This document shows, piece by piece, positions 4,699-55,215 of a stretch of 64,000 bases of DNA. Below the pieces are notes generated by a model that was not told the DNA's origin, did no database searches, and was given only the letters and a program-made list of their open reading frames with translations. This stretch comes from Heteronotia binoei (taxonomy: Eukaryota), in the NCBI RefSeq assembly GCF_032191835.1, contig NC_083228.1, forward strand, positions 71,610,001-71,674,000, given 5' to 3'. The position numbers and the translations under genes were made by a program. Each line of letters starts with the position of its first letter. Positions within the stretch are counted from its first letter, which is position 1.

Positions 4699-5399
4699 TC
4701 CCATTGGCTTCTGTATTCCTAAGTGGTTTTTTAAAATAACTTTTAAAAGCTACCTCACTAGTGTGCAAGGTTTCCTCTTCTGTCCATGTATTTTGTGAGC
4801 TAATGCTGGGATGGTTAGTTGTGACTTCTTCCCAAGTAAACATAGATCAAGCTGTTAGTCACTTATTCAACACAAGGAAGCTATATTCACCATAACTGTT
4901 GATTACTGCTCTAGTGATTACAGCATAGGACTACAAGTGCTATGTCTGTATACATGGTGCATGTATGGAGGAAAAAGCAGGATAATACTTGCTTTCCCTG
5001 CTTCTTTTGGTATGCGCACTCAGAATAACTTGTTCTAGGTGACCAGGCTTTATTGTACCTACAAATGTATGCATGTATAATTATTTAGGAATATTCAGAG
5101 GTCATTTTGGAGAAAAATAGGTGGTGGAGCTCATTCAGGGATTGTTATGCAGCTGCACATATTCTTCAATGGACAAGGACATGGAACTCTCAAAAGGAGG
5201 AGGTGGAACTCTCAGAAAGGTTCAGGAGCTGTGCTCCTGTGAGCTCCCACTGAATCTCAGGCCTGGGAATATAGCTGACTGTGCATAGAGAGGTGAGGGA
5301 CTAGATAAATTGGTGTTATCTCCTCTCCATGAGATTTTACTGTATACAAATTGACATCAACGTAGTCTTTGTATGTTGCTTTATTGAGAGGAAGGAAGG

Positions 5400-6379: not shown

Positions 6380-6555
6380 AAAGAAGCCTCCTGAAGCCCG
6401 CTGCATCGCAGCCTGGCGGAAGGGGAAGTTTTGCCCCCCCTTGGAGGGAGAGCGGAATCTTCAGCGCGCTTTTGAGCGCGTCCTGAGGGGGCGGGGCTTC
6501 AACGCTGTTGCTGAAGCCCCGCTCGGCGCCGCGGCAGTCTTCCCGGCGTTTTCGG
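6380..6555 (+). repeat. Ngaro repeat A1
   Basis: 176 bp, identical by eye to A2 at 11438-11613. Confidence 0.95.
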
Positions 6556-6851
6556 AGGGCTCGCAGCATGTTTGCAAGCTCTTGACGCGTCGGGGCTGTC
6601 TGGGCCGTGGAGCCTGTGGAGCGTCTTGTGGATCGGCTGAGAGGAGCGGAACGCGTCGCGGGAGCATTTTTCTTGAACAGTTTGATTGCCGGGGCTTGCT
6701 GTGTGCCCTGGAGCATTTTTGTCTTGGGGGCTGTTATAGGGTGTTCTTTTGGGCTGGTCTTTTGCAGGGGCTCTAGGAACGTCGCCTTTTGGGGTAAAGA
6801 GTAGTCCATTTGGATCCCCCCTCTTTCCTTGCTTGCTACTGGACTGCCCAG

Positions 6852-6897
6852 TCTTGGAAGCTAAGCAGGGACGGCCCTGTTTAGCTCTTGGATGGGA
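6852..6897 (+). promoter_or_regulatory. 5S rRNA internal-control-region-like segment (box A to box C) inside the Ngaro leader
   Basis: tcttggaagctaagcagggacggccctgtttagctcttggatggga matches vertebrate 5S rRNA nt ~43-88 at 40/46 (compared from memory of the 5S sequence). The flanks are not 5S. Confidence 0.7.
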
Positions 6898-7590
6898 AGA
6901 AAGGAGAGGTCCCCTGTGCAAGCACCAGTCGTTTCTGACTCTGCGGGGACGTTGCTTTCACATTTTCATGGCAGAGTTTTTATGGGGTGGTTTCCCCTTG
7001 CCTTCCCCAGTCATCTGCACTTTCCCCTTAGCAAGCTGGGGACTAGGTTGGCCGACCTCAAAAGGATGGAGGGTTGAGTCGACCTTGAGCCGGCTGCCTG
7101 GGCCCAGCTTCCGCGGAGATTGGGTCGTGGGCGGAGGGCTCAGACTGCAGTGCTGCGGCTCTGCCGCTCTGTGCCACGGGACTGCTGCTTTAGCATAGGA
7201 AAGGAAAGGTCCCCTGTGCAAGCACCAGTCGTTTCTGACTCTGCGGGGACGTTGCTTTCACATTTTCATGGCAGAGTTTTTGTGGGGTGGTTTCCCATTG
7301 CCTTCCCCAGTCAACTGCACTTTCCCCTTAGCAAGCTGGGGACTAGTTTGGCCGACCTCGAAAGGATGGAGGGTTGAGTCGACCTTGGGCCGGCTGCCTG
7401 GGCCCAGCTTCCGCCGGGATCGGGTCGTGGGCGGAGGGCTCAGACTGCAGTGCTGCGGCTCTGCCGCTCTGTGCCACGGGGCTGCTGCTTTAGCATAGGA
7501 AAGGAAAGGTCCCCTGTGCAAGCACCAGTCGTTTCCGCCTCTGGGGTGACGTTGCTGTCACAGCGTTTTCATAGCAGACTTTTTTAGGTG
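6898..7590 (-). mobile_element. Tandem Sauria SINE copies (two full ~300-bp units plus one partial) inside the Ngaro leader, antisense
   Basis: 300-bp period (units near 6900, 7200, 7500). The minus strand reads a tRNA-like head gccccgtggcacagag, then gactggggaaggcaatgggaaaccacc, then the tail caggggacctttcctttcc. Confidence 0.8.
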
Positions 7591-7624
7591 CCTTATTCAG
7601 GACTGTGGTGCTGTCAGGGGATTG

Positions 7625-7930
7625 GGTAGCCATTTGACCAGGACTGTGGGGAACGGCAGGGCTGGGCGGCCGTTTTGAGAGGCTGAAATTCGGGGGTGCT
7701 GGTAAGAGTACTTCTCCCTGAGGCTGGGTGGCCATTTTTAGCCTTTCTTCTTCTCCCTCATACCTTGTGCTTGGGGCGGCCATTTTGAGGTGCTGTACTT
7801 CTCCCTGGTGCTTGGCGGCCATTTTGGCCTTGCTTCTTCTTCATCACACCCTTGCTCTTGGGGCGGCCATTTTACGAGGTGTTTAGGCAGCGGCCATTTT
7901 AGAGTCACTGGGGTGGTGGCCATTTTGTGG
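7625..7930. promoter_or_regulatory. Cluster of about 8 GGCCATTTT / GCGGCCATTTT (YY1-like) motifs upstream of gag
   Basis: Motif repeated near 7629, 7666 (variant), 7731, 7777, 7815, 7863, 7890 and 7918. Confidence 0.45.
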
Positions 7931-8020
7931 GCTGTTTTCCTCCTTTTATTCCTTTGCTGGCCTCAGGCTTGGCTAAGCTAGTTAAAGAAAGTCTGCTGTT
8001 TGCTGTGCTCTTTGGCAAAC

Positions 8021-9095
8021 ATGTCGGGTCGCAAAGGCAGTGGAAAATCAAAAGGGAAACAGCCTGCCCCTAAGGCTCCTAAGCCTCCTTTTAAGCCCCC
8101 CCCCCCTTCGTCTTCGGACACTGAAGGGGACGATGAAGTTAATGCAGCCATTTTTCAGAGGCTGCGGGCACTTGAGCAGGCATCGGGGTTTCCACCTTCT
8201 CAGTTGCCCAAGATGGGTCGGTTGTCCAAGCGTGCTTTGCAGGCAGATGTATTGACCCGCTTATCTCTTTTGGAGGGCAGATCTGCTGTAGTTGCTGCTG
8301 GAGGAGCTGTGGGGCCTGCTTGCTCTGATGTTGGTGCGGGCACGTCGTCCGGTGCGGGAGGTACTGGATCAGCTTTGGTGCCTGCTTTATCAGCTGGTAA
8401 GTCGGGGGAAGGCTCTTTGCCTCATCCTGGGCCTGTGTGGCCTTGGGGGGCTTGGGGGTCTGCTGGTCCTGGTGGGGTGGGTGCTCCATTGGGCAGTGCT
8501 GGGGGCTCCTTCTACTCCGGGCTTAGAGCAGCAGAGCAACCGGATGTAACCACAGGGTCAGTTGGTCCTTTGGGTAATTGGCCCGTGGTTGGTCAGCAGG
8601 GATCGGCAGCGACTTGGCCTGGAGGTTGGGGTTTCCCATCTCCATACGGGGCGGTCCCCTTTAGTGCTATGCCTTTTGGGGAGGTGGCTCTGCCGCTGGG
8701 TGATCACCTGCTGCCTGCCACAAGACAGAAAAGCTTATAATGGGAATATGTGGTCGTATTCCCCCTTTTAATTAGGGAAGTGGAGAAGGGGGACAAGGAG
8801 GAGTTGGACGATAAAGAGAAGAAGCAGCTCTGGAAGAGGAAGGTTTATCTGACCTTGGCCAATTGGCTCCCGGGGTTTTTCATATATGCGGGAGTGATAG
8901 CTCGTGCGCAGCCCTGGCGGGCCGCCGCGTTGATTCAATATATGGACATCATATACAAGGGGTATACGATGTTCAGCGGCCTGGCCTGGATCCAATATGA
9001 CCAGGAGTTCAGGATGAGGGCCGCTTTGTACCCTTCACTCCCTTGGGATCGGATTCACCAACAGTGTGGCTGCAGGTGATGTCACCTCAGCTGGC
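8021..9095 (+). pseudogene. Ngaro gag-like ORF1, in-frame stop at 8738-8740, 3'-truncated
   Basis: MSGRKGSGKSKGKQP..., then PLGDHLLPATRQK and WLPGFFIYAGVIARAQP, homologous to ORF 45493-47034. The zinc-finger C-terminus is absent. Confidence 0.88.
8394..8402 (+). promoter_or_regulatory. Predicted 5' splice donor in gag (CTG|gtaagt, phase 1, intron starts 8397)
   Basis: Consensus GTAAGT after the first base of the codon at 8396. A same-phase donor exists in the second element. Confidence 0.65.
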
Positions 9096-9137
9096 CACAG
9101 ACGCTGATCTGGAAGCGGCGCCAATGCCCCAGGAGCT

Positions 9138-10038
9138 ATGGCTGATTGGAGAGCCGAGGCCTGCAGAGTGTATAGGCTTAGCCATTGTACCTAGCACCAG
9201 GAAGTCTTATGAGCGTGCTGTGTGGCAGTTTGAGGACTTTAGGGCTGAGGTAGGGTATCGCATTGTTGGCCCCTCCCAGTGGAGCAGTTGCTCCATTATT
9301 GTCTTTCCTTGAGAGGTAAGGGATTGGCCATGCGATCAATTCGGGGACGCATGTCTGCGCTGGCCTTCGCTAGCAAGGCCTTGGGGTTTAAGAGGAATCA
9401 GCAGATTTTCGTATTCGAAAGATGCTGGAAGGGTGGTCCTAGGGAGGCTAGGCCTATGCCTGATACTAGGGTCCCTTTGTCTCCTGATATTCTTCGGGGT
9501 TTGAAAGGGGGTTTGGAGCGCAGTGCGTGCGTCTCATTTCGAGGCAGTTTTGTTCCATGCAGCCTCTTTGGTACCCCTTTGGGGCTCTGAGGGTTAGTGA
9601 ACTGGTGGCAAGCTCCAAGAATGATGTTTCGGGTAGGGCGTTGTTATTGAAGGATATTACGTTGCCCAAGAGGGCACGGGGACTGTGCTAGAGTTAGGTC
9701 CGTGTTCGGAGGCGGAGCTTTGCCCAGTTTCCGCATTAGCTGACTATTTGGCTTTGCGGGAGGGCTGCGAAGGATCGCTGTATTGTCACGCTGGGGGCAG
9801 TCCGTTGGCAAAGCATCAATTTTGGACTGTGATATCAAAGGCTTTAGCCCTGTTGGGTTTGTCTGGATTGAGGTTTGGTACCCATTCCTTCAGAATCGGT
9901 GCAGCCTCGACGGCTGCTGCCCTGGGTTATCCTACTTCGTCCGTTCACGCCCTGGGTTATCCTACTTCGTCCATTCAACGCCTGGGCCGTTGGCGTTCTC
10001 CAGCTTACAAAGGTTATATTCGCCCTTTGCTCCGCTAA
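9138..10038 (+). pseudogene. Ngaro tyrosine recombinase, frameshifted
   Basis: Fragments STRKSYERA, ALRVSEL (shifted frame), GTHSFRIGAASTAA and LGRWRSPAYKGY. Includes an in-frame 30-nt duplication (ALGYPTSSVH/ALGYPTSSIQ). Confidence 0.9.
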
Positions 10039-10084
10039 TAAGTTTTGGTTAGGAGCTGGGGGTATTTTGAGGTTTGGGTTGTAT

Positions 10085-10110
10085 AACTTGTCTGTTTCTT
10101 CCTTTTAGAT
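10085..10110 (+). promoter_or_regulatory. Predicted 3' splice acceptor before the SGNH frame (ataacttgtctgtttcttccttttag|AT, phase 1)
   Basis: Branch-like TAAC, a pyrimidine tract and TAG ending at 10108. The hydrolase codon frame starts at 10111. Confidence 0.7.
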
Positions 10111-10989
10111 GCTGTTGTTCCTGGCCGGAGGAGCAGAGTTCTCATCTGCGGGCGCAGTTATGTGTTTTGGGAGGCACATCAAGCTCGGAGAACTGCTGTT
10201 GGCTCTCAGCTGGGGCTCAGCAAACATGTCACGATAGAATGGAGGGGGCGCCTGGGTCTTCAGTGGCCTGGCTTGCTTCCCCTTTTGTTTCATGGGTCTG
10301 GGGGCCCTCCTCCGCAGGTATTGATTTTTCACCTGGGAGGGAATGATCTCGGGCTGATTAAGGGCAAGGCATTGATCTTGCAGGCTCGAGACGATTTCAG
10401 GTACATAAGGAACAGATGGCCTGGTACCATTATAGTTTGGTCGGCCATGATTCCGCGCTTGGTGTGGCGCTGTGCCTGGGGGTTTATGGCACCATGCGGC
10501 CTGGGGAGGACCGGTTAGCCTCCCCCTTTTGGGGAGTTAGGGGTCTGTCAGGATCAACCTTGGGTGTGGCTCGAGGTTTGTGAATGCAGACTGTCCTGGA
10601 GACTCGATTGGATGGGAGCCTTTCGCTGAGACTCGCGTCTGGTGTTTGGGCCCTCCGGTGCGAGCCTCCCTGCTGGGCCTGCCTAACGGGAGCTGTGGCT
10701 CACAGCTCCGGCTGGGGGGCTGGGTCTCTCGCCCGCTGAAAAAGGCAGGGGAGCGGTCTGATGAGACCCCTGGCCCTGACCTGGCCGCAGTTCTGTTGCC
10801 CACCGAGCGAATAAGGAAATTTGCAAGTTTATGGAGGGTGGTTTGGGCCACTATTTGCCCCATCCGGATATTTCTAAAGACCTCTACAGAGGGGATGGTG
10901 TGCATCTCTCGGAAAAGGGTAATGTGCTTTTTCTGAGTGTTTTGCGGCAAGGGCTTTTGTTGGGTTTTGGGTCTTTTTGTGGGTGCTAA
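10109..10989 (+). pseudogene. Ngaro SGNH/GDSL-like hydrolase, interrupted by a partial B repeat (10483-10800)
   Basis: Block I VLICGRSYVFW, block III IFHLGGNDLG and block V YRGDGVHLS (after the insertion). Confidence 0.88.
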
Positions 10990-11018
10990 GCCCTAAGTAG
11001 AGACTTGGCCTTAGTTGT

Positions 11019-11440
11019 GGCAGGTTCTACGGGGTTATGGCACCATGCGGCCTGGGGAGGACCGGTTAGCCTCCCCCTTTTGGGGAGTTAGGGGTCTGTC
11101 AGGATCAACCTTGGGTGTGGCTCGAGGTTTGTGAATGCAGACTGTCCTGGAGACTCGATTGGATGGGTGCCTTTCGCTGAGACTCGCGTCTGGTGTTTGG
11201 GCCCTCCGGTGCGAGCCTCCCTGCTGGGCCTGCCTAACGGGAGCTGTGGCTCACAGCTCCGGCTGGGGGGCCGGGTCTCTCGCCCGCTGAAAAAGGCAGG
11301 GGAGCGGTCTGAGGAGACCCCTGGCCCTGACCTGGCCGCAGTTCGGTTGCCCTTGCCGTTGCTAGTTATTTTAATAAAAGTGGCCCATATTTTCACCAAT
11401 TTAATTGTGTCCGTCTCTTTATTCCGACTTGGGGGGCAAA
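11019..11440 (+). repeat. Ngaro repeat B1
   Basis: Matches B2 (11810-12224) except for a 7-nt indel. Contains AATAAA near its 3' end. Confidence 0.95.
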
Positions 11441-14400
11441 GAAGCCTCCTGAAGCCCGCTGCATCGCAGCCTGGCGGAAGGGGAAGTTTTGCCCCCCCTT
11501 GGAGGGAGAGCGGAATCTTCAGCGCGCTTTTGAGCGCGTCCTGAGGGGGCGGGGCTTCAACGCTGTTGCTGAAGCCCCGCTCGGCGCCGCGGCAGTCTTC
11601 CCGGCGTTTTCGGCCCACCCGCCCGCCCTGTTTGTTATGCAGGCAATTGCTGGTCGCTTCCGTTTGGAGGGGCCGGGTAGGAATTTTTTCACTCCCCGGC
11701 GTTTTGGCATGTGACTGGGGGGTGTTTTTTGCCTACCTTGCATAACATTTCAGTGGATTGAGGAATTGGCTTAGGGTTGGTGCCTTGGTAGAGTTTGGTC
11801 ACTTTTTAGGGCAGGTTCTACGGGGTTATGGCACCATGCGGCCTGGGGAGGACCGGTTAGCCTCCCCCTTTTGGGGAGTTAGGGGTCTGTCAGGATCAAC
11901 CTTGGGTGTGGCTCGAGGTTTGTGAATGCAGACTGTCCTGGATTGGATGGGTGCCTTTCGCTGAGACTCGCGTCTGGTGTTTGGGCCCTCCGGTGCGAGC
12001 CTCCCTGCTGGGCCTGCCTAACGGGAGCTGTGGCTCACAGCTCCGGCTGGGGGGCCGGGTCTCTCGCCCGCTGAAAAAGGCAGGGGAGCGGTCTGAGGAG
12101 ACCCCTGGCCCTGACCTGGCCGCAGTTCGGTTGCCCTTGCCGTTGCTAGTTATTTTAATAAAAGTGGCCCATATTTTCACCAATTTAATTGTGTCCGTCT
12201 CTTTATTCCGACTTGGGGGGCAAATGACTACCTTCCTAAATTTACATAGCCAATATTAGCTCCATACACATTGCCATATTAGTGCCATGCCTGTGTACTT
12301 CTTGGTTGCTGTTACTAATTGAGGGGGGGGGGGGAGCTTAATGTCTTGATGTTCATATGGAACTCTTCCATTTATTTCAACAGAGAGGCAGAGGACATCT
12401 TTTTGTATGCATCTTTTAACCTGAACAAAATTGCCCCTTCTACTGAAGTGAATAGGGTACTCCACACATATGAGAGCCCCATGTGCACAAAGAAATATAC
12501 TTACAGCAAGGATACAATGGTTCGATTTACCTTTGTTCCATGGTTCTCTTCCCCCATGGATTAAAGTTCTGCATCCAGACACACATGGGCATTATTTGGG
12601 TACTTTCTTCTCTCCCATAGTGCTATTGGGCTCAATAGAGATGTGGTCAGGCAGAGGAAGTAGCCATGTGACAATGCACTTTTAAATCTCACTGATACAA
12701 CTTGGGAAGCAAGGGGCTCTTTTTCTAGCAGGAGCTCCTCTGCATATTACACAATGCCCCTCTGATGTAGCCAATCCTCATGGAGCTTACAGTAGGCCCT
12801 GTACTAAGAGCCCACTAAGCTCTTGGAGGATTGGCTAAATCAGGGGGGCATGGCCTAATATGCAGAGGAGCTCCTGCTAGAAAAACAGCCCTGGCCCAAG
12901 CTTGGTGCAGAGAAGCAGGAACCAGGCATGTTCAAGAAAGGGAGCACAAAAAGGTCCCAGTTGAAGGATGTAGAGATGAAACAGCTGCCAGCCCATGCAC
13001 CTGTCCATCCATATATCTGTTTGTTCATCATCCTTTCTCTCTCCTTAAGATCTCTATTGTCTGAAGAGACACAAGACTTTCCTGAACCAGAAAGTGGCAT
13101 TCCTGGTCAAGGGGCAGCAAGCACCACCTGTCCCAGGTTTGGGTGGCCTTAGGTATTATCTCTATAGAAAGCTGCCTTAGGTATTATCTCTACGGAAAGG
13201 GTGTGGAAGCAGGACCTGGGGAAGGACCCAAGATGGGAAAGCAGACCTAGAACATGGGTAAAAGCAAGTGAAGATGATAAAGAGTAAACTAGTCAGGTTG
13301 ACAATCTCAGAACTGATTACTAGATCTGAGCCAATCTGTAAAAGGGGCAATCTCTGCACTTCTTGGTTATGGACTCCTCTTTGACAACACTGATCTCTAG
13401 GTGAATATGACCTTGGCCAGGGAGCTTCACAAGGAATAAGGAATATTCTTGGTACCTTCAGTGCTTGAGGGAGGGACTGGCTTCTGAACCTTTGAATATC
13501 TCATGATCAGCAGATTGGGTACTGATACATGCTATTTTGTGGAACTGAATGCCAATTATTTTGCCAAACAGGTTTCCTTGACAAGGAGATGATAATATGA
13601 AATATTATAGACTCAGTGAAGCAACATCATATTACTGAGCAGGTGCTAAACAGAAATTCAATATCCTGAATCTAGCCTGTGCCCTTGTCCAGGACCCAGG
13701 ATGCTGGAAGAGTTCCAGTTTTCATCTGCCAATACAACGATGAAACTGTGGTCTGCTGACAATTGTGTTATTTAAATTGCATCAAGTTGAAGAACAACAT
13801 TATGAGCATGCACTTCTTTCTGCAATATTGGCACTTAAAAATAATTAAAAAGATTTATTGTTTATACAGCTGAGGGTGTGTAAAGCATGAGATATTTCGT
13901 TCAATTGCATCAGATTTTGAAAGGTCACTTGAAATTTCTGTTTAATAAACAGCGCTGATTTTTTTCTCCTTACTGTTATTCATAAATGAACCATACATGC
14001 ATGAAACAAAGCTGTTTTTCTTCAATATCTTAGGCACAAGCAGAAATATACTTCTGAAAGTCTGAATACATCAATTTAATCTTATCTAAACTGAACACTA
14101 ACATTCTTTTGGAATAAAACATATAATCCACAAGAGCTACTCAAGAGGGAGACCGTCAAATTAAATATATTATCTACCCTGCATCACCCAAGTTCCCATC
14201 AAAAAGGCCAAATAAGAGTGTCCTGTAGCCATTTTAAAGAATGCACTCCTGTCAACAATGGCTGGAAGTTTCATGACTTTAATTTACATTTTTCTCAACT
14301 TCCTTCAAAGATATCAGACGAGCATTCTTGGGGTTTCCAGGGGTCCACTACCCAGGAATTGGTCTACCCACACCCGCTTAACTTCCATGTGTAAGTTGCA

Positions 14401-40425: not shown

Positions 40426-42402
40426 ACATTGGCCTGATCCAACATGCATATACATAGGTGGGAATTCCAATTACCTGCCTCTTGCTCTATCTCCAAACTA
40501 ATTCCCCCAAATTAGGTGGAGACTCCCTATTTTGGGTAGCACATTTCTCAGGTTACTGAATATTAAAGATGTTACTACATTGCAGCAAGGTGCTGGGTTT
40601 ATGTATAACAAAGTTAGAACATAAGAGAAGCCATGTTGGATCAGGCCAATGGCCCATCCAGTCCAACACTTTGTGTCACACAGTGGCCAAATACACACAC
40701 ACACACACACACTGTGGCTAATAGCCACTGATGGACCTCTGCTCCATATTTTTATCTAACCCCCTCTTGAAGGTGGCTATACTTGTAGCCGCCACCACCT
40801 CCTGTGGCAGTGAATTCCACATGTTAATCACCCCTTGAGTGAAGAAGTACTTCCTTCTATCCGTTTTAACCTGACTGCTCAACAATTTTATTGAATGCCC
40901 ACGAGTTCTTGTATTGTGAGAAAGGGAGAAAGGTACTTATTTCTCTACTTTCTCCATCCCATGCATAATCTTGTAAACCTCTATCATGTCACCCTGCAGT
41001 CGACGTTTCTCCAAGCTAAAGAGTCCCAAGCGTTTTAACCTTTCTTCATAGGGAAAGTGTTCCAAACCTGTAATCATTCTAGTTGCCCTTTTCTGCACTT
41101 TTTCCAATGCTATAATATCTTTTTTGATGTGCGGTGACCAGAATTGCACACAGTATTCCAAATGAGACCACACCATCGATTTATACAGGGGCATTATGAT
41201 ACTGGCTGATTTGTTTTCAATTCCCTTCCTAATAATACCCAGCATGGTGTTGGCCTTTGCACCCCCAAACGGAATAAAGAGGCAGACAACAGTTATTGGG
41301 AAATGGGCCACTTTATTTAACAGTAAACAATTAGGCAAGGAGAACAGAGAGGACGAGCCCTGGGGTTACTCATGACCCCGCCAAGTCCTATAAGGGCGAG
41401 CCACCCAACCCCCGGTCATAGCCATACCCGAATGGCTATAACCGGGCGGCAGACCAAACATGTCATCCCCTAGTGCCCACCCCGATCACCAGAAAGGAGC
41501 GCCAAAAGGGGATACATGGACCCGATCTGCATTTCCGAACATTGAGCCGTAAAGCCCATCTGCCTTCCATACGGATCGTACGCACAACCACAGGAGCAGA
41601 GGCCTGGGTGCTCGCCGGCAAGGTCAGAATCCCTTGGAAATTCCGCAAAGTGGCCGAATTAGCTGCCTAACAAACTCCACACCACTGCTAGCAGTACAAG
41701 GTAGGCGAAAAACACAACACCAACGGCCAATTCAGGTGATGCGAAAAAATTCCTACCTGGCCCCTAATAAGGCGACCGGTAAAACCTGTACTACTGCAGG
41801 GTGGGCGGGCGGGCCGACGCCTCCACGAAACTGCGTGGAGAGGTTTGGGGCAGAGGCTACTTAAAGCCTCGCCCCCGCCCCCACAAAATTCCCGGATGCC
41901 CGGGAAGCTCCTCTTTGATCCTGCCGGGGCTGCAAAAGACGGCCCCACGGCGCGCAGCCACGTTGCGGCGCGGCCAGGGTGGGGCCGAATTGCACCCCCA
42001 AATGGAATAAAGAGGCAGACAACAGTTGTTTGGAAATGGGCCACTTTATTTAACAGTAAACAACTAGGCAAGGAGAACAGAGAGGACGAGCCCTGGGGTC
42101 ACTCATGACCCCGCCAAGTCCTATAAGGGCGAGCCACCCAACCCCCGGTCATAGCCATACCCGCATGGCTATAACCAGGTGGCAGACCAAACATGTCATC
42201 CCCTAGTGCCCACCCCGATCACCAGAAAGGGGCGCCAAAAGGGGATACATGGACCCGATCCCCATTTCCGAACATTGAGCCGTAAAGCCCATCTGCCTTC
42301 CATACGGATCGTACGCACAACCACAGGAGCAGAGGCCTGGGTGCTCGCCGGCAAGGTCAGAATCCCTTGGAAATTCCGCCAACCGCAACGCCAAGCCTTT
42401 GC

Positions 42403-42984
42403 TTAGGTGTTAGCGACCCCCGGGAGGCCCAAAGCCTCCCGAAGACCTTGCCTAAGCTCTGTCAAGAAGACCCAATTCGCCATCTGGCCGATAAAGCTCG
42501 GCATTGTGCACATTAATGCCAGGGTGTGGGAGAAAGGTGCCCAGACCTCCTTCAAGAGCCAACTGCAGGGCCCGGTTTGCCTTTCTCCTGGCCCGCTCGA
42601 TCCCAGCGAGGTTCCAGGCAGACTGCCACCTCCTCCGAGGCAAAATGGCCGACCAAATGATCCAGACTCCGGGCCACCTACTCGCAATGACCCGCAAGTC
42701 CGAGATTGCCTGCAGGGACAGTGCCCTGCCCTGCAACAAACCTAGGTCATTCCCACCCAGGTGAATGACCAACAGATGAGGAGGGGAATGAGGCCGATTG
42801 TCGAACAACAGCGACAACAACTGGGCCCATCAAAGCCCCCGACGCCCCAACCATTCAACAGTGGCCCATTCGCTCAGTCCGAGCTGTGACCCAAGCGATG
42901 AACTTCTTGCAAAATGGGCTGCCCAAAAGACCATGCTGTGACCGCATACGAGGATCCTCAGCCTCCCATGTCGAGCCACAGCAC
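42403..42984 (-). pseudogene. Ngaro SGNH hydrolase with a 1-nt frameshift and a ~20-nt deletion of the DGVH segment
   Basis: RILVCGHSMVFW (block I) and VIHLGGNDLG (block III). YRPDG is followed by out-of-frame NWVFLTELRQGL. Confidence 0.88.
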
Positions 42985-43010
42985 CTGAAACAAGAAAACA
43001 AAGTCAGAAC
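42983..43010 (-). promoter_or_regulatory. Predicted 3' splice acceptor (ttctgactttgttttcttgtttcag|GT, phase 1)
   Basis: Branch-point CTGAC, a pyrimidine tract and CAG. The exon starts at 42984. Confidence 0.7.
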
Positions 43011-43039
43011 AAACAACACCCAACTTTCCCCTTATGCAC

Positions 43040-43957
43040 TCAGGGGAGCAACAATGGGCGAACGTAAGACCGATAGGCCGGGGACCTCCAACGCCCGACC
43101 CATTGAATAGCCGGTCCCGGGTATCCCATGGCTGCGGCCGTTGAAGCCGCGCCAATCCTAAAAGAGTGAGTCCCAAAGCGGAAACCCCCCAGACCGAGAT
43201 TACCCAAGGCCCGGGAGGTAACCGCCCAAAACTGATACTTCGTAAGGGGAGATCCTCCCTTGTGCCGGAAAAAGGGGCCCATTTCAGAACCACGTAATTG
43301 ACAGTACGCACGTAGCGCCTGGACCGGACAGAGCCCAGGCACAGAGCAGGGACCTAGCCTGATGGTAGTGCCTTTGCCTCGCTGGTCCGTCTTGGACCGC
43401 CGTACCTGCAACAGTACCTGCCCATGCTTAAATGACACATCACCCATCTGCAAAGCGGTGTCAGCTGTGTCCCTCCGCGAGGACTGGACTAGCTCGCTAA
43501 CACGCAGGGCTCCGAAAAAGGCGGAAAGGGCCGCAGTGTGAAACAACACAATCTCATAGTCCGAACTACAGACTTTGGGCCACTCTCCTCCCAAACCTTG
43601 CAGAATGGTGGGGGATATGGGCTCCCTAGTATCAACTCTCTGCCCTTGTTCCCTGGACCAACCCTTAAGCATCTTCTTGATCCTAAAATCCTCCCCAACG
43701 GCAGGGAAGCCTTGGGCTTTGCTGAGAAATGACAACGCCACCAAGTGGCCCTTGATGGTTTTAACTTTCATACCCTTAGACTTCTGATAAACACAAAACT
43801 GCATCAAATGGGCCACCGGGATGGGCCATACCTCACCCAGCCCGGCGGATCGGCGGAATACCTTGAACAGTGATGACACACGATCATAAGCCCTCCGCGT
43901 ACTCGAGGCCAGCGCTAAAAGGATTGCCCTACCTGCTTCGGCCAGCCAAGGTGCCAA
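43040..43957 (-). CDS. Ngaro tyrosine recombinase (305 aa, apparently intact)
   Basis: Catalytic R (GALRVSEL), K (RSKTDQ), HxxR (HSFRIG) and GRWRSPAYRSY. Overlaps the end of the RNase H frame. Confidence 0.95.
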   Translation of the reverse strand: MAPWLAEAGRAILLALASSTRRAYDRVSSLFKVFRRSAGLGEVWPIPVAHLMQFCVYQKSKGMKVKTIKGHLVALSFLSKAQGFPAVGEDFRIKKMLKGWSREQGQRVDTREPISPTILQGLGGEWPKVCSSDYEIVLFHTAALSAFFGALRVSELVQSSRRDTADTALQMGDVSFKHGQVLLQVRRSKTDQRGKGTTIRLGPCSVPGLCPVQALRAYCQLRGSEMGPFFRHKGGSPLTKYQFWAVTSRALGNLGLGGFRFGTHSFRIGAASTAAAMGYPGPAIQWVGRWRSPAYRSYVRPLLLP

Positions 43958-45791
43958 AGGTGGGGTGGCATCTGAGTCGGATGGGCATCGGCCTCCGGGG
44001 CAAGAAGGCGGAACCGCTCCATCTGTCGGCGAGACAGGGCATCCGCCACCCCGTTATTAATGCCTGGCACATGCTTGGCAACGAATACGATGTTTAACTG
44101 TAGACAGCGCAGGACAAAAACTTGCACAAACGACATAACTGGTTTGGATTTGGACGTCAAAGAGTTGACCACGTGCACTACAGCTAGGTTGTCGCACCAA
44201 AAGTGCACGACCTTATCTGCCATCTGTGCGCCCCAAATGAAAACTGCTACAACTATGGGGAAGAATTCCAACAAAGTCAAGTTTTTACAAAGGCCACTGT
44301 GGAGCCACTCCTCAGGCCACGGCTCGGCGCACCAATGACTCCTGAACAGGACACCGAAACCAAGAGAGCCTGCCGCGTCGGAGGCGATTTGGAGGTCCGC
44401 TTCGAGCATCAGCTCCTCCCTCCAAAAAGACACTCCGTTGAAAGAAGTCAAAAACTCCTCCCAAACTTCCAGGTCACCGCGGATGTTCTCTGTTATCCTG
44501 ACACTATGATGGGGTAGGCGGATGTTAGCCATGGCGTCACAAAGGCGCCGAATAAAGGCTCTACCCGGGGCGATGGCTCTACAGGCGAAGTTCAGGTACC
44601 CGACGAGTTGCTGCAGCTCGAGTAGTGACACCTTGCGCCTGCCCCTCATCGCACGGAGTCTGGTCCTAATCTGGCCAACCTTGTCATCCGGCAACCGGGA
44701 CGACTGTTGTACGGTATCTAATTCAATACCCAGGAAAATGATAGAGGTGGCAGGGACCTCCGTTTTTTCATGAGCGAGTGGCATGCCCAACTCCGCTGCT
44801 AATCTCGTAAAAAGGTCTAGTAAACAGGCGCAATTGCCAGAATCAGATGCGCCTGCGAACAAAAAATCATCCAAATAGTGCACCACCTCGCGGCAGCCCG
44901 ACCTGTTCTTGACCAGCCACTCCAAAAAGGAGCTGAAACGCTCAAAGGCGGCGCAGGACACTGAGCAACCCATGGGTAATGCCCTATCTAGGTAAAAGTT
45001 ACCTTCAAACTGGAAACCCAATAATTCGAAGTCTTCCGGGTGAACTGGCAATAGTCGAAATGCAGATTTTATATCACATTTCGCCATTTCCGCACCAGGC
45101 CCACAGCTCTGAATGACCTTAACTGCTTGGTCAAATGACGTATAACGAACAGAACACAAATGGTCAGGTATGCTGTCATTGACCGACCCGCCCGCAGGGT
45201 AAGATAAATGGTGAATAAGCCGAAACTCACCACCACCTTCTTAGGGACCACCCCCAACAGGGATACCCTCAAATTGGGAACGGGAGGGGCGGTGAATGGG
45301 CCAATGACTCGCCCTTCAGCGCATTCCTTAGCAATCTTTTCCCTGACCACGTGTTCCAAACCAATAACAGAACGCAAATTGGCAGCACCACAAGGGACCC
45401 TGGGTCCGATGTAAGGGATGCGAAAACCAAATGTGAAACCCTCCAACAAATACAACTTGTCCGCGACCCGCGGGTAATTTCGAATGAAGCGTTCAAGGAC
45501 CCTCAGCCGAATGGGGCTGGGGCCCTTTTCCCATCGACTGAGGGCCGCCACTGCCCCCGGGACATTTGGGTCCGCCTTTTGGTTTCGCCTTGCTACATGC
45601 TGAAAAGGCATGAGGACCTCCACACAGCGGGCACTCGTGTTTGAATTTGCAAGCCTTCCTCGAGCAGACGCCTTGGGAGGTGTATTCCCAACACAACAGC
45701 CGGGGTTGAACCGGCTGGCCCGCCATAGGGCGGGCCGTTGAAGTGCTTGCTTGCTTATGGACCAAGTGCCCACTATCAGCCCTATCCCCAA
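43915..45791 (-). pseudogene. Ngaro reverse transcriptase/RNase H with one frameshift near 45232
   Basis: LGVVPKK|GEFRLIHHLSYP, KCDIKSAFR, LPMGCSVS, YLDDFL, SDAAGSLGFG, WCDN and ADALSR. No methyltransferase domain seen. Confidence 0.93.
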
Positions 45792-47034
45792 AATTGGGTT
45801 TAGCCGGGGCCATCAGTTGCAACCATAACTGTTGGTTGATTTGGTCCCACGGCAGTAGGGGGTTAATTGCCGCCCTCATTCGAAACGTTTTGTCGTACTG
45901 CAACCAGGTGGGACCACCAAAATCCGTGTAAGCCCGGTATATAATATCGCAGTACTGGAATAAGGTGGCGGCCCTAGCGGGCTGCGCCCTAGCTATAACA
46001 CCGGCGTAAATAAGAAAACCCGGCAGCCAGTTGGCCCAGGTTCTGTCTACTCTCTGCCGCTTGAGTTTCTCTTTTTCTTTTTCATCAAGTTCCTCTTTGT
46101 TTTTCTTCTCCAGTTCCCTGTACAACAAGCTAAAAACGTCCACATACTCGCCCCTCAGGATCTTTTCCCTTGTGGCAGGGGTGAGGTGGTCGCCCAGCGG
46201 CATAGCAGGGTCACCGTAAGGAATAGATAGCAAAGGAACAGATCCATAAGGATTCTGTATATATCCCCACGGATTGCAAGGCACAGCCGGCCAACCAAAA
46301 GGATGCACGGAGTGCATTTGGCTACCCCACGGCAAAATTCCCACGGAAGCAGGTGCCGCTCCGGGGGTTGAGGCGGCGGACGGCGTGGGAGGTGCCAAAG
46401 GCGGCTGCCCCCATGCTGCTGTAATACCTGGGATCTGACCAAGAGTGGCACCACCCGAAGCCCAGGATGGGCCCGGGACTGCAAGGGACGGCCCTTGACC
46501 GCCCTCGCGCTGCAAGGTGTCTACCCTAGCTTCCCCAGGCTGCTGTGGTAGGTTTGGGCCCCAGGAGCCCCACGGCCAATGAGTGTGCTGTGAAGCCAAG
46601 ACCGCCCTACCTTCCTCCATAACCGGTGTCCCCACCACCACCGCCGGTTGTGCCGCTTGTTGTTGTTCCTCAGGTTCGTCCAAACCACCGCTGGCACCAC
46701 CCGACAGTGGTTCGCCGCTCGACTCACCCCCTTGAGAATGGTCTGCCCTTGACCTGGCAACCATAGTGTCCTGCAAAAAAGAAAGTCTGGAGAGCAACTC
46801 TCTCTCAAATGTAATGGTTCCTGACCTGCCACTCGCGCTATGGCGCCCCGGCCAAACCGCTTGGGACCCAGACGCACCCTGCTCCTCCTCCATAACCCTT
46901 ACCCTGTCTAATATGGCCTGGCGTATCACCGCAGTGTCCGTCTTCTCAGAAGGAGGATCAGTGTGTCTGCGCTTGGACGCTGCCTTGGCTGGCTGCTTGC
47001 CCTTAGACGGGCCCTGACCTTTTTTAGGAGCCAT
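45493..47034 (-). CDS. Ngaro gag-like ORF1 (513 aa)
   Basis: Open frame with a basic N-terminus, a conserved core (PLGDHLTPATREKILRGEYVD, WLQYDKTFR) and a Cys/His zinc-finger region (CWEYTSQGVCSRKACKFKHECPLCGGPHAFSAC). Confidence 0.93.
   Translation of the reverse strand: MAPKKGQGPSKGKQPAKAASKRRHTDPPSEKTDTAVIRQAILDRVRVMEEEQGASGSQAVWPGRHSASGRSGTITFERELLSRLSFLQDTMVARSRADHSQGGESSGEPLSGGASGGLDEPEEQQQAAQPAVVVGTPVMEEGRAVLASQHTHWPWGSWGPNLPQQPGEARVDTLQREGGQGPSLAVPGPSWASGGATLGQIPGITAAWGQPPLAPPTPSAASTPGAAPASVGILPWGSQMHSVHPFGWPAVPCNPWGYIQNPYGSVPLLSIPYGDPAMPLGDHLTPATREKILRGEYVDVFSLLYRELEKKNKEELDEKEKEKLKRQRVDRTWANWLPGFLIYAGVIARAQPARAATLFQYCDIIYRAYTDFGGPTWLQYDKTFRMRAAINPLLPWDQINQQLWLQLMAPAKPNFGDRADSGHLVHKQASTSTARPMAGQPVQPRLLCWEYTSQGVCSRKACKFKHECPLCGGPHAFSACSKAKPKGGPKCPGGSGGPQSMGKGPQPHSAEGP
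46722..46730 (-). promoter_or_regulatory. Predicted 5' splice donor in gag (GGG|gtgagt, phase 1, intron starts 46727)
   Basis: Consensus GTGAGT after the first base of gag codon 103. Confidence 0.65.
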
Positions 47035-50000
47035 GCCTCAATCCCCACAATGCAACCAAGCTGAAGAAGGGTGCAGGTGGGGGTGGGGGCAGAAGGCCAG
47101 CAAGTCACCAGGATGTGGCAAAAGAAAAAAAAAGGGGGGAGGGGGGAATTAAGGAGGGATGGTGGTGAAATATCCTAATTCAGGGGCCCCAGGCCACACA
47201 CACACACCCAAAGTCCACCCTCCTTCAGAGGCCAGGAATCCTCCTAAGCCGGCCCTAAGCTGATCCAAGCAATAGCGTTGCCCTGGGACCACCCCAAGCA
47301 CCGCTACCGCCGCCTCAAACTAGAAGGGGAGGTAGCAAAGGCCCACACGCTCCCCGCAAAGGGGCCCGCACAGCCCCACCAAACGAAGGGCCGCCCCACC
47401 CCCAGTGCACCAAACCGTGCAAGAAGCCCCGATGGGCTGAACGTCGCACCTCCGCCACCTATCCGTCAGCTGAAGCCGCCGAACAGCTGATCCGCACCGC
47501 CTCAGGAGCCGCGTTCCCAGCCCCTTCCGGGATTTGCCGAGCTGCCGACAGCTGCAGCTGCGCGCGTCAGCGTACGAACGCAGCGCGCCTCAGTCCTGTC
47601 TTCCCAGCCGATGCTGGAACAGGCGCGGACGCCGCCGACAAGGCCGCCTCCCGGCCCAACGACGCAGTGAGTAGGGAACAGTCCGCTCAAGCTCCTACTC
47701 CCCCGACGCCTCCACGAAACTGCGTGGAGAGGTTTGGGGCAGAGGCTACTTAAAGCCTCGCCCCCGCCCCCACACAATTCCCGGATGCCCGGGAAGCTCC
47801 TCTTTGATCCTGCCGGGGCTGCAAAAGACGGCCCCACGGCGCGCAGCCGTGTTGCGGCGCGGCCAGGGTGGGGCCGAATTTTTATTGCAATTGCACACTG
47901 TCTTGACATTTCCAGTGAGTTATCTACCACAACCCCAAGATCTCTCTCTTGGTCACTCTCTGCCTGTTCACACCCCATCAACTTGTATTTGCAGCTGGGA
48001 TTCTTGGCCCCAGTGTGCATTACTTTGCACTTGGCCACATTGAATCTCATCTGCCACGTTGACGCCCACTCACCCAGCCTCAACAGATCCCTTTGGAGTT
48101 CCTCACAATCCTCTCTGGTTTTTACCACCCTGAACAATTTAGTGTCATCCGCAATCTTGGCCACTTCACTGCTTACTCTCAACTCCAAATTATTTATGAA
48201 CAAGTTAAAGAGCATGGGACCCAGTACTGAGCCTTGCGGCACCCCACTGCTTACCGTCCTCCACTGCGAAGACTGCCGATTTATACTCACTCTCTGCTTC
48301 CTATTAATTAGCCAGTTTTTGATCAACAAGAGGACCTGTCCTTTTACTTCATGACTCTCAAGCTTACTAAGGAGCCTTTGATGAGGAACTTTATCAAAAG
48401 CTTTCTGGAAGTCAAGGTAAACAATATCTATCGGGTCTCCTTTGTCCACATGTTTGTTCACCCCCCCCCAAAGAAATGTAACAGGTTAGTGAGGCAAGAT
48501 CTTCCCTTGTAGAACCCATGCTGAGTCTTCCTCAATAACTCGTGTTCATCAATGTGCCTACTCATTCTGTTCTTGATAATGGTTTCTACCAACTTTCCCG
48601 GTATTGAAGTCAGACTGACTGGCCTGTAATTACCCGGATCACCTCTGGAACCCTTTTTAAAGATGGGGGTGACATTTGCTACCTTCCAGTCCTCAGGAAC
48701 GGAGGCAGATTTCAATGAAAGCTTTCCAAGTTCAATGAAAGTTTCAATGAAAGTTTTCCAAGCTTTCTCTAATTAATTTCCTTTTTTTCAGAATGCTGCT
48801 GCCATTTCTCCATCTGCACAAAGAAATGCTGATAGATAGAATCACAGCAGAGCCTTGACGTCAACAATGGTGTGGGTGTGGGAACTGCAGCAGGCCAAGC
48901 AGTGGAAGATGAGAGCCATGCCAGGAGCCGCTGGTAGCAGAGGCAATGGGGAGAGCTGTAGCCATGCCAGACTCACTGGCAGCAGAGGAGATACTAGAGG
49001 AAGGCAGGAGCCATAACAAGCTCAGTAGCAGCGACAGTGATGGTTGGTGCAGGGGCCCTGGCAGTGACAGCAATAGTGAGGGGCAGAAGCTGTAGCTGCG
49101 AACAGGAAGGAATAAAATTTTAAAAATTACAAGTTAGGAAATATACGTAATTAGAAAACAATTTATCTTAATAATACAATAAACAAGCAATGAAAATCAT
49201 CTAAAATGACAGCTCTTTCCTCATGCCCTCTATTTTATATATTCCATGGAATGAGAGCAGTATGAAGGTCTGACTCCAGAAAGTACAATTGTTTTTCCTA
49301 TATATTTCAGCATCATTTTCCTTCTGCTATTTGCATATTCTTCCCAAGGATTTCACATATGGGTGACTTAACCAATTGGGGATATCAATGTGTCCAGTGC
49401 CCAATCAAATATCTGGTATCTATTGAGATGATTAAGGACAATGTCACTAACTGAAAGTAGTGGCAATATTTCCTTAATAGGCAAATACAAGTGGGGACCC
49501 ACAAGGAACTTGATAGGGGATAGAGAATCCTGTTCTTTTATCTTGCTCCCCTACCTCCACTGGCTCTTTCCCTTCCTTTTTCACCCCCTTTGCTTTCGAA
49601 ATCCTTCCTGCTCCTTGCTGCCATTGCCACCTCTCCCTCCTGAGCTGAACTGCAATGGGACCTTTCTTGACTCTTCGCCAGTTTCTTCTTTTCCTGCTGC
49701 TTTTCTGGTGATCATATGTTGATGGCAGTGGGGGAGAGGAGAAACTATTCTGAAGCAGAATTGCAGGAGGGAAAGGAACAGATTCTATGGCTGGTTTGGA
49801 AAAAGAAAGGAATGGCCCTTGAGAGGAAAATAACTGCTGTGAAGCTTGCATCTCTCACAGCAGCTTACTGGTTGTTGTTGTTGTTTTGTATCATTGTACT
49901 TGTATATAGGGGTTGCTAAGCAACACTCAAAATGGTGCTGCTGTTGATATCATGACTGTGATGAGTCTTGTTCAGTGAAAGTTGGTTTTTTTTTTTAAAG

Positions 50001-53158: not shown

Positions 53159-53799
53159 GTAATTGCCACAGATAAAGGAAGGGTAGAGCCTAAATCCATA
53201 CTGAAGGAACTGCCTCCTTCTTGTATGTGTGATGATATGCAATAACCATGGAAGTTCAGCAGCAACACTGCTAACAAAGGTGTACTTTTATTATGATTTA
53301 ATTTGTTAGCTGCCTTGGTGGCCCTGTAAGGGCAGCAAGGGATGGTATAAATTTTGTAAAGAAATAATAATAAACTAAGAGTCATCCAATGTTGAGTAAT
53401 CAAGTAAAGGCCGTACATGGGAGTACTGGTCTGGAGGGTAGGGTTGCCAAGTCCAATTCAAGAAATATCTGGGGACTTTGGGGGTGGAGCCAGGAGACTT
53501 TGGGGATGGAGCCAGAAGACATTGGGGGTGGAGCCAGGAGCAAGGGTGTGACAAGCATCATTTTGGCCTGGAAAGAGGAAATGAATACACAATATTTCTA
53601 GAGGCATTTTAACTTGCAAAAGATTAATAAGTGCACCGTATTTCTACATTTGGATTTCTAAAATAATGTTCTGGAGCGCCTTCAATGAATCCCACATTTT
53701 TTGGTGCTATACTTTCTTATTAAATGCCCATTCCAGTCAGTTTGGCGGTGTTCTGGATTAATTTTGGCGTGGAACAGGAAAATAACGGAATGACATTTT

Positions 53800-55215
53800 T
53801 GCATTTGTTTTTCCAAAACGTTCTTCCATTGATTGTTTAAAGCCTGTTCCGAGGTGTTCTGGAGGCATTTTGACCTGGAACGGGGTAATAAGGACATGTG
53901 AGTTCCACTTTTTCTGTTCTAGAATATTGTTCTCGAGTGTCTGTGATGCATCCAAGTGTTTTTTGTAGCAGCCCAGGTTGTTTGATGCCTGTTCCGGGAT
54001 GTTCTGGAGGCATTTTGGTACAGAATGGGATAATAAGGACGTGTGAGTTCCGCTTTTTCTGTTCTAGAATATTGTTCTCAAGTGTCTGTGATGCATCCAA
54101 GTGTTTTTTGTAGCAGCCCATGTTGTTTGATGCCTGTTCCGGCCTGTTCTGGGGTGTTCCGGAGACCTTTTGGTCCAGAACAGGGTAATAAGGACATGTG
54201 AGTTCTGCTTTTTCTGTTCTAGAATATAGTTCTCAAGTGTCTGTAATGCATGCCAGTGTTTTTTGTGGCATCTCAGGTGGTTTGATGCCCATTCCGGCCT
54301 GTTCTGGGGTGTTTCGGAGGCCTTTTGGTCTGGAATGGAGTAATAAAGACATGTGAGTTCCACTTTTTTTGTTCTAGAATATTGTTCTCAAGTGTATGTG
54401 ATGTATGCCAGTGTTTTTTGTGGCAGCCCAGGTTGCTTGATGCTCTTTCCGAGGTGTTCCGGGGTGTTCTGGAGGCCTTTTGGCCCGGAATGGGGAAATA
54501 AGGACGTGTGAGTTCCACTTTTTCTGTTATAGAATATTGTTCTGAAGTGTCTGTGATGCATCCAAGTGTTTTTTGTAGCAACCAGGTGGTTTGATGCCCA
54601 TTCTGGCCTGTTCTGGGGAGTTCCAGAGGCATTTTGGCCCGGGGTAATAAGGGCGTGTGAGTTCCTCTTTTTCCATTCTAGAATATAGTTCTCAAGTGTC
54701 TGTGATGCATGCCAGTGTTTTTTGTGGCAGCCCAGGTTGTTTGATGCCCATTCCAGCCTGTTCCATGGTGTTCTGGAGGCATTTTGGCCTGGAACGGGGT
54801 AATAAGGATGTGTGAGTTCCGCTTTTTCTATTCTAGAATATAGTTCTCGAGTGCCTGTGATGCATGCCAGTATTTTTTGTGGCAGCCCAGGTTGTTTGAT
54901 GCCTGTTCCGGGTTGTTCCAGAGGCATTTTGGCCAGGAATGGGGTAATAAGGATGTGTGAGTTCCATTTTTTCTGCTCTAGAATATTGTTCTCAAATGTC
55001 TGTGATGCATGCCAGTGATTTTTGTGGCAGCCCAGGTTGTTTGATGCCTGTTCTGGGGTGTTCCGGAGGCATTTTGTCCTGAAACAGGGTAATAAGGATG
55101 TGTGAGTTCCGCTTTTTCTGTCTAGAATATAGTTCTTGAGTGTCTGTGATGCATCCCAGTGTTTTTTTGAGACAGTCTACGTTGTTTTATGCTCGTTTCA
55201 GGCTGTTCTGGCCCG
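53800..55215. repeat. Tandem array of 145-155-bp units
   Basis: The anchor ttctagaata recurs near 53917, 54062, 54217, 54372, 54527, 54676, 54831, 54976 and 55120. Confidence 0.92.

Follow-up and report, generated by a model that had tools for sequence, protein, structure and literature searches.

Two diverged Ngaro retrotransposons, E1 and E2, lie in opposite orientations in the stretch of Heteronotia binoei DNA analysed here (contig NC_083228.1, positions 71,610,001 to 71,674,000; the whole stretch of 64,000 nt is called the window). Elements of this type carry gag, reverse transcriptase/RNase H (RT/RNase H, pol), tyrosine recombinase (YR) and, last, an open reading frame (ORF) for an SGNH esterase. 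The best explanation for their expression is very probably that a single 5' splice site, some 120-145 codons from the gag start, is combined with alternative phase-1 3' splice sites, of which there are two or more. Two such splices are in frame, and conservation of the sites holds for the clades that were sampled. The unspliced RNA would serve as genome and as template for full Gag. Splicing to an acceptor at the end of the RNase H sequence would yield a fusion of the N-terminal Gag segment (Gag-N) with YR of about 455-470 amino acids (aa), while splicing to an acceptor after the YR stop would yield a Gag-N/SGNH esterase of about 325-345 aa. We infer that recombinase and esterase come mainly from translation of these spliced RNAs.

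An earlier note on this DNA had proposed that the hydrolase is made from an env-like spliced RNA as a Gag-N/SGNH fusion. The fusion is backed by intron-less genomic copies and by RefSeq gene models. The splice to the esterase thus stands, but it is not esterase-specific: the same donor also serves the tyrosine recombinase, and 'env-like' is therefore too narrow a label. Judged from genomic comparison, splicing appears to be a real and well-supported expression strategy of these elements, broader than that first proposed, although splicing itself is a known strategy of retroelements.

Intron-less genomic copies with the Gag-N/SGNH junction

The genome was searched with natural fused proteins, and contiguous matches were counted among the scored hits. 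Contiguous Gag-N/SGNH matches amounted to 1/123, 2/119, 3/150 (one already known) and 2/120 (both already known), giving five distinct copies (L101, L102, L103, L174 and L175). In all five, exactly the segment from GT to AG between the phase-1 gag donor and the SGNH acceptor is missing. For four of them an unspliced relative shows both intron ends; L102 fits the pattern, its parent being absent from the fetched loci. Copy L103 is 99% identical to L195-L197 and aligns over its full length with L196 and L197, the one gap being a stretch of exactly 1323 nt that begins with gtaagc and ends with ttcag, the same junction being found with L195; it retains the A1-B1-A2-B2 repeats and is without poly(A) at its ends. 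Copies L101, L174 and L175 track their nearest relatives up to CTG/gtaagt (the slash marks the exon border) and then restart at tag/ATG. The junction 8396-10109 put forward earlier for E1 is exactly that used in L175, which shares 89% identity with E1 in the 5' part of gag.

In the exon-2 tree the intron-less copies are spread over two or more distinct clades, with unspliced copies placed between L102 and L103. As read from their sequences, such copies would have to come from an RNA that was spliced, reverse-transcribed and integrated in the germline. Because the intron-less copies, including that of the recombinase type described below, were reinserted, both splices took place in the germline of this genome's lineage.

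The relatives L195-L197 form a second young, internally deleted subfamily (for the first, E1, see below), in which the donor, the SGNH acceptor and the 1323-nt intron are kept. Deleted unspliced forms amplify and spliced copies are rare, which may reflect a packaging signal or a cis-acting Gag inside the intron.

A second predicted product, Gag-N/tyrosine recombinase

In the gecko elements the YR frame opens in phase 1 at cag/AT within the RNase H motif ADALSxxQM. A 466-aa Eublepharis gene model found with a Gag-N profile (P0171) shares its first exon with the esterase models P0019 and P0289 and continues at this site into the full YR. Two further models, P0287 and P0288, likewise have that N-exon ahead of a full YR; they are isoforms of one locus, and their single-residue difference at the join fits what a tandem acceptor would give. 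When the genome was searched with P0171, one contiguous match was obtained among 91 scored (L201), in which the donor seen at position 2299 of L108 (CCG/gtaagt) is joined exactly to the acceptor at 4749 (cag/ATG), the SGNH acceptor being kept. On this comparison of copies and models, the gag donor used for the esterase is also spliced to the recombinase acceptor, giving Gag-N/tyrosine recombinase. A single match of a YR-junction pattern was discarded, as it did not lie inside an element; the sequence of the true copy, L201, does not fit the pattern.

Conservation of the splice sites among genomic copies

Site conservation was examined in 69 fetched loci, the best hits to four SGNH-containing queries, plus E1 and E2 (71 elements). 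A phase-1 YAG is located 32 nt (38 nt in one clade) before SGNH block I in 70 of the 71 elements, L149 having lost it; 68 were counted by script, and L142, L149 and L170 were read separately (site present in L142 and L170). The branch-point motif TRAY was found 12-40 nt upstream of this acceptor in 61/68 copies. In E1 and E2 the acceptors lie 70 nt (stop end 10038) and 55 nt past the YR stop, respectively, each with a TRAY motif and a pyrimidine tract as earlier described, and the SGNH frame has indeed no Met between the upstream stop and block I. The ATG directly after the E1 acceptor was considered as a start and rejected, being out of frame with SGNH.

A phase-1 donor of at least 4 bits is present at gag nt 355-435 in all of the 18 clade representatives (GTAAG in 13, GTAGG in 5), whereas codon shuffling yielded 0.98 on average and never more than 6, in a test for which the interval was chosen after seeing the data and the representatives are related. 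At the recombinase acceptor the Gln codon is CAG in 60/61 copies and in 16/16 representatives, versus 74/103 at other Gln codons, the copies being related and hence not independent.

All four sites named in the earlier note were found where it placed them, each in phase 1, and phase 1 is kept for donor and acceptor in every clade sampled, as that note had expected. Its choice of donor for E2 (46728/46727) did not hold, with GT kept in 8/19 E2-clade copies versus 18/19, down to 62% nucleotide identity, for the phase-1 donor AAG/gtaggg at 46611/46610. The Gag part thought to be retained was 125 aa for E1, which is upheld, and 102 aa for E2 (307 nt from ATG 47034); given that the E2 donor is most likely 46611/46610, about 141 aa of Gag would be retained there. 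The length and end of this E2 exon agree with Eublepharis gene models.

Gene models in other species

Gag-N/SGNH architecture was found in RefSeq models for 12 of 52 SGNH homologues, from five lizard genera (Eublepharis, Heteronotia, Anolis, Elgaria and Hemicordylus). Model P0012 maps at 100% onto locus L161 of the present genome as two exons, with donor GAG/gtaggt and acceptor tag/ATG. Toad models likewise show a single N-terminus, joined in some cases to SGNH (P0162 and P0166) and in others to the beginning of the YR frame (P0164, P0165 and P0168). Three models from Hemicordylus and Bufo (P0264, P0297 and P0168) consist of three parts, the N-exon, a short YR-start piece and SGNH, which suggests that another donor lies near the 5' end of the YR exon.

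Modules of the predicted proteins

No Pfam family was named for Gag in the scan. The first 20 residues of Gag-N are strongly basic, and the KGKQP stretch and two helices pointed out earlier are present and conserved in the alignment, the hydrophobic pattern being conserved in both helices. In the predicted structure of the natural fused ORF of L103, helices span residues 30-55 and 72-87 with moderate confidence (predicted local distance difference test, pLDDT, 63-76 for the block); the linker that follows is disordered, and the SGNH domain is modelled with confidence. An R-h-x-x-h-E motif is a candidate trimer signal of the helical module. The donor lies 30-50 codons past the second helix in all clades.

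Of 66 open SGNH frames, 53 carry the motifs GHS, GND and DGVH and a further 8 have the variant GEND; the block II Gly is invariant in the alignment. The modelled fold matches PAF-AH, bacterial SGNH proteins and the esterase of ZfL2-1 ORF1p (4c1b; Foldseek E 6.8e-7, 23% identity). By its blocks I, II, III and V and its modelled fold, the SGNH exon of the E1/E2 family is a predicted SGNH hydrolase.

A candidate third acceptor for Pol

The pol frame is in +1 relative to gag and has no conserved Met. A phase-1 YAG with a pyrimidine tract was detected at 56-71 nt upstream of the conserved start, KGPSP, in 51/61 copies versus 8% of control windows, the interval having been set post hoc and the site overlapping constrained knuckle codons. 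Counting against its use, this YAG is absent from five copies of an E1 subclade. No match to an intron-less Gag-N/Pol copy was obtained with one E1-clade junction pattern, and no Gag-N/Pol protein record was present among the hits tested. From these sequence comparisons we give a phase-1 acceptor for Pol slightly under an even chance. Since pol is in the +1 frame, a -1 slippery site where gag and pol overlap was rejected. The overlap of L120, L172 and L161 shows changes in the length of a G homopolymer at the 3' end of gag; such a change fuses the gag and pol frames in two copies (700 and 985 aa), being either mutation or a hint of slippage.

Possible role of the shared N-terminus and alternative explanations

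The shared basic two-helix N-terminus might act as a tag by which recombinase and esterase are docked into the Gag ribonucleoprotein particle, in place of the Gag-Pol polyprotein and protease of long terminal repeat (LTR) elements; YR elements are not known to carry a protease. The docked esterase might then bind or cleave membrane lipid, as does the esterase of ZfL2-1 ORF1p. For this role of tag and esterase we regard the chances as about equally divided. A wider proposal is possible but doubtful. Here all three enzymes (RT/RNase H, recombinase and esterase) would be alternative 3' exons of one Gag-N exon, and the helical tag would replace polyprotein and protease for loading. The arrangement would be general in Ngaro elements, from lizards and toads to unicellular eukaryotes, and the tagged esterase would enable the particle to bind membranes, in convergence with the ORF1 protein (ORF1p) of long interspersed nuclear elements (LINEs).

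Several points weigh against expression by splicing as set out here. The evidence for splicing consists here of genomic copies and of RefSeq gene models, the latter being computed predictions. The choice of copies by best hit favours conserved ones. Junction patterns with either donor gave no match to an intron-less copy of the E2 clade, so that the E2 donor rests on its conservation. The toad N-terminus gave no match to the gecko Gag-N profile, and the strategy can be extended to amphibians only tentatively. An in-frame Met is present upstream of block I in 17/68 copies, at offsets of 7 to 140 codons, and at YR codon 22 in 6/16 representatives, and internal initiation could thus contribute. 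An in-frame ATG of this kind was what the earlier note held to speak against its proposal; it does occur, but at scattered offsets and without being shared within clades, the copies concerned belonging mostly to one clade, yet not including all of its members.

These Met codons would also be expected if the splicing were incidental, owing to cryptic sites or host-favoured attenuation, and if the unspliced RNA yielded YR and esterase through internal initiation, reinitiation or frameshifting. The rarity of intron-less copies, six distinct ones among the scored hits given above for the two junctions, is in agreement with this explanation. It is nevertheless improbable, because donor and both acceptors are in phase 1 in every sampled clade, the SGNH acceptor lies in a non-coding spacer, 51/68 copies offer no Met upstream of block I, and the recombinase site is CAG in every representative, at variance with other Gln codons. 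As to the copies themselves, internal deletions are common in these families (E1; L195-L197) and there is a 3-nt overlap at the L103 junction, as if DNA deletion or microhomology template switching had produced the intron-less copies, the gene models being ab initio artefacts of the same signals. This is hardly credible, since the six copies, from at least three subfamilies and with two acceptors, are all broken exactly at GT and AG, while the E1-clade junctions have one base in common and the ends of the E1 deletion itself are not at splice sites.

A more serious possibility, though not the favoured one, is that the splices are functional and the shared N-terminus supplies only a start codon, a leader and a nuclear-import signal, without docking into a particle. 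The strongly basic first 20 residues, the moderate confidence of the helices and the disordered linker are as this would predict, whereas the position of the donor, well beyond the second helix in all clades and not near the ATG, and the conserved hydrophobic pattern of both helices point to a larger role.

Elements and other features in the window

The coordinates of the features are summarized in Table 1. Split direct repeats of the order A1...B1-A2-B2 were identified in E1, E2 and L103. In E2, gag, RT/RNase H and tyrosine recombinase overlap in the Ngaro-like order (PF00078, PF00589 and frames); pol ends at 43915 directly past the RNase H motif, and no methyltransferase (MT) family appeared in the Pfam scan. 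The assignment as Ngaro-like is based here on split repeats, gene order and the lack of MT; PAT-like elements also have split repeats, but with MT. These families are large, with 9170 and 7007 first-look candidates for two SGNH queries, which are not copy numbers.

Both copies in the window are defective. E2 has a frameshift in pol and a stop in SGNH, and the first Met of its tyrosine recombinase exon is codon 73. E1 is without RT/RNase H and the 5' end of YR, including the YR acceptor, and its SGNH exon carries a 322-nt insertion; its 5' region contains a 300-nt tandem duplication (6899-7584). E1 represents a recently amplified, non-autonomous subfamily, the same SGNH interruption being present in 22 of the 30 top loci (L001-L019, L021, L024 and L029), and an intact esterase is therefore not required in cis.

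Table 1. Features of elements E1 and E2 in the window.
Feature	Position	Strand	Remarks
E1, internally deleted Ngaro	6380..12224	+	From self-comparison and comparison with L107 and L114
E1 repeats	A1 6380-6555, B1 11019-11440, A2 11438-11613, B2 11810-12224	+	
E1 shared coding exon, 125 codons + 1 nt (376 nt from ATG 8021)	8021..8396	+	Ends at donor CTG/gtaagt; homologous junction in L175, L101, L174, L201
E1 SGNH acceptor ttttag/AT (10108/10109)	10085..10109	+	
E1 SGNH exon	10109..10996	+	Interrupted at 10480-10801 by sequence copied from the 3' repeats
E1 conserved hairpin between A2 and B2	11670..11743	+	
E2, Ngaro retrotransposon	41257..47880	-	Split direct repeats; ~90% identity to L124 over 6.1 kb
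E2 repeat A1	47703..47880	-	98% identical to E2 repeat A2
E2 shared coding exon, 141 codons + 1 nt	46611..47034	-	Basic N-terminus, two amphipathic helices, low-complexity linker
E2 gag ORF, 513 aa	45493..47034	-	Open frame, Cys/His knuckles at C-terminus; predicted product of unspliced RNA
E2 donor of the earlier note, GGG/gtgagt (46728/46727)	46722..46730	-	GT in 8/19 copies, GTGAG in 3/19; probably incidental
E2 conserved phase-1 donor AAG/gtaggg (46611/46610)	46605..46613	-	Kept in 18/19 E2-clade copies; use inferred
E2 candidate phase-1 Pol acceptor (45593/45592), unproven	45592..45612	-	
E2 pol (RT/RNase H)	43915..45592	-	PF00078 E 8.5e-13; +1 frame relative to gag; frameshifted here
E2 recombinase phase-1 acceptor cag/AT (44023/44022)	44022..44045	-	Inside RNase H motif ADALSxxQM; used in L201, P0171, P0287, P0288
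E2 tyrosine recombinase exon, 326 codons	43040..44022	-	PF00589 E 8.4e-6, slightly below curated cut-off
E2 SGNH branch point, pyrimidine tract and phase-1 acceptor (42985/42984)	42984..43010	-	YAG kept in 70/71 elements; homologous site used in L101, L102, L103, L174, L175
E2 SGNH esterase exon, broken	42403..42984	-	PF13472 weak on pieces; SGNH fold predicted for open relative
E2 repeat B1 with AATAAA	41990..42382	-	97% identical to E2 repeat B2
E2 repeat A2	41814..41991	-	
E2 conserved two-stem hairpin between A2 and B2	41694..41763	-	
E2 repeat B2	41257..41649	-	

E2 interrupts a LINE: the flanks of the element (47881-48724 and below 41258) continue as one LINE, the two halves of which are joined without a break at another site, and there is an RT match (PF00078) at 47505-48485. 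The element ends (3382 and 6778 of L103; 47880 and 41257 of the window) meet the flanks through a short shared A run identical to the B/A junction and are without poly(A) and without obvious target duplication, as integration by a recombinase predicts.

The hairpin between A2 and B2 has an outer stem of invariant sequence (GGTAGG/CCTACC) and an inner stem that varies; its internal loops are rich in U, and TTGGC is found as a loop motif. There were 74 matches among the fetched loci, with both-side changes at 7 of 16 predicted pairs in 15 sequences, and no significant Rfam match for the region. It is a candidate signal for replication, packaging or recombination. Outside E1 and E2, the window contains a degenerate tandem array with a unit of 145-155 nt (53696-55199) and an RT-like open frame (15645-16997; PF00078 E 2.7e-6, below cut-off), probably a LINE fragment.

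Significance and comparison with known systems

How the downstream, often Met-less overlapping ORFs of YR retrotransposons are expressed, and what the Ngaro hydrolase does, are questions that PMC9210276 and PMC6681497 do not settle in the text consulted. The exact junctions described above provide a concrete answer for the expression of vertebrate Ngaro elements. Native recombinase and esterase would be redefined as fusion proteins, which bears on their biochemistry and on repeat annotation, and lizard and toad genes listed as 'uncharacterized' in RefSeq would, as a class, be accounted for as transposon products. A protein of basic, helical and esterase parts resembling LINE ORF1p would be made through splicing in an unrelated class of retroelement.

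Ngaro-like elements with a hydrolase ORF of unproven function have been described in Xenopus (DIRS-53_XT and DIRS-54_XT; PMC9210276), and such elements are also dealt with in PMC6681497, as far as the available text of each goes. As in the gecko elements, A1...B1-A2-B2 repeats enclose gag, RT/RNase H, YR and then an SGNH ORF in the two Xenopus elements. They are described there as having separate overlapping ORFs, whereas YR and SGNH of the lizard elements are downstream exons of gag; neither 'splic' nor 'intron' occurs in PMC9210276.

The ZfL2-1 ORF1p esterase hydrolyses esters and binds acidic phospholipids, and it is preceded by an arginine-rich motif and a coiled coil, according to the part of PMC3905857 at hand. 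It is similar to Gag-N/SGNH in having a basic stretch, a helical module and an SGNH esterase on one chain (PDB 4c1b), but it is encoded by one unspliced ORF of a non-LTR element, whereas the gecko architecture is assembled from Gag by splicing. Gag-N/SGNH resembles the esterase-type LINE ORF1p in architecture and is not a member of that group, being the spliced product of a YR element. PAF-AH and bacterial SGNH proteins score equally in the fold comparison, so that no common origin is shown for the gecko and ZfL2-1 esterases.

In Dictyostelium DIRS-1, RT acts in trans and a spliced reporter RNA was carried through the full cycle, as the accessible part of PMC7192593 reports. DIRS-1 is thus, like the gecko elements, a YR retrotransposon that passes spliced RNA through its cycle, as the intron-less copies need. 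Unlike them, it has inverted repeats with an internal complementary region (ICR), and the splicing concerns an engineered marker intron. The available text of PMC9341512 makes no mention of splicing as an expression strategy for YR elements. No report of spliced Ngaro or DIRS products was found in the literature searched; the founding papers, supplements and Repbase reports lay outside this search and may mention spliced expressed sequence tags.

Retroviral env and foamy-virus pol are expressed from spliced subgenomic RNAs. In plant Ty1/Copia elements, a spliced short gag RNA has been described as an expression strategy in the part of PMC5580714 available. In all of these systems, as in gecko Ngaro, the yield of several proteins from a single genomic RNA is governed by splicing. 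What Copia elements, retroviruses and foamy viruses obtain in this way is either Gag by itself or an enzyme or envelope that has a start of its own, whereas in gecko Ngaro a folded Gag segment of 120-145 aa is fused to alternative enzymes.

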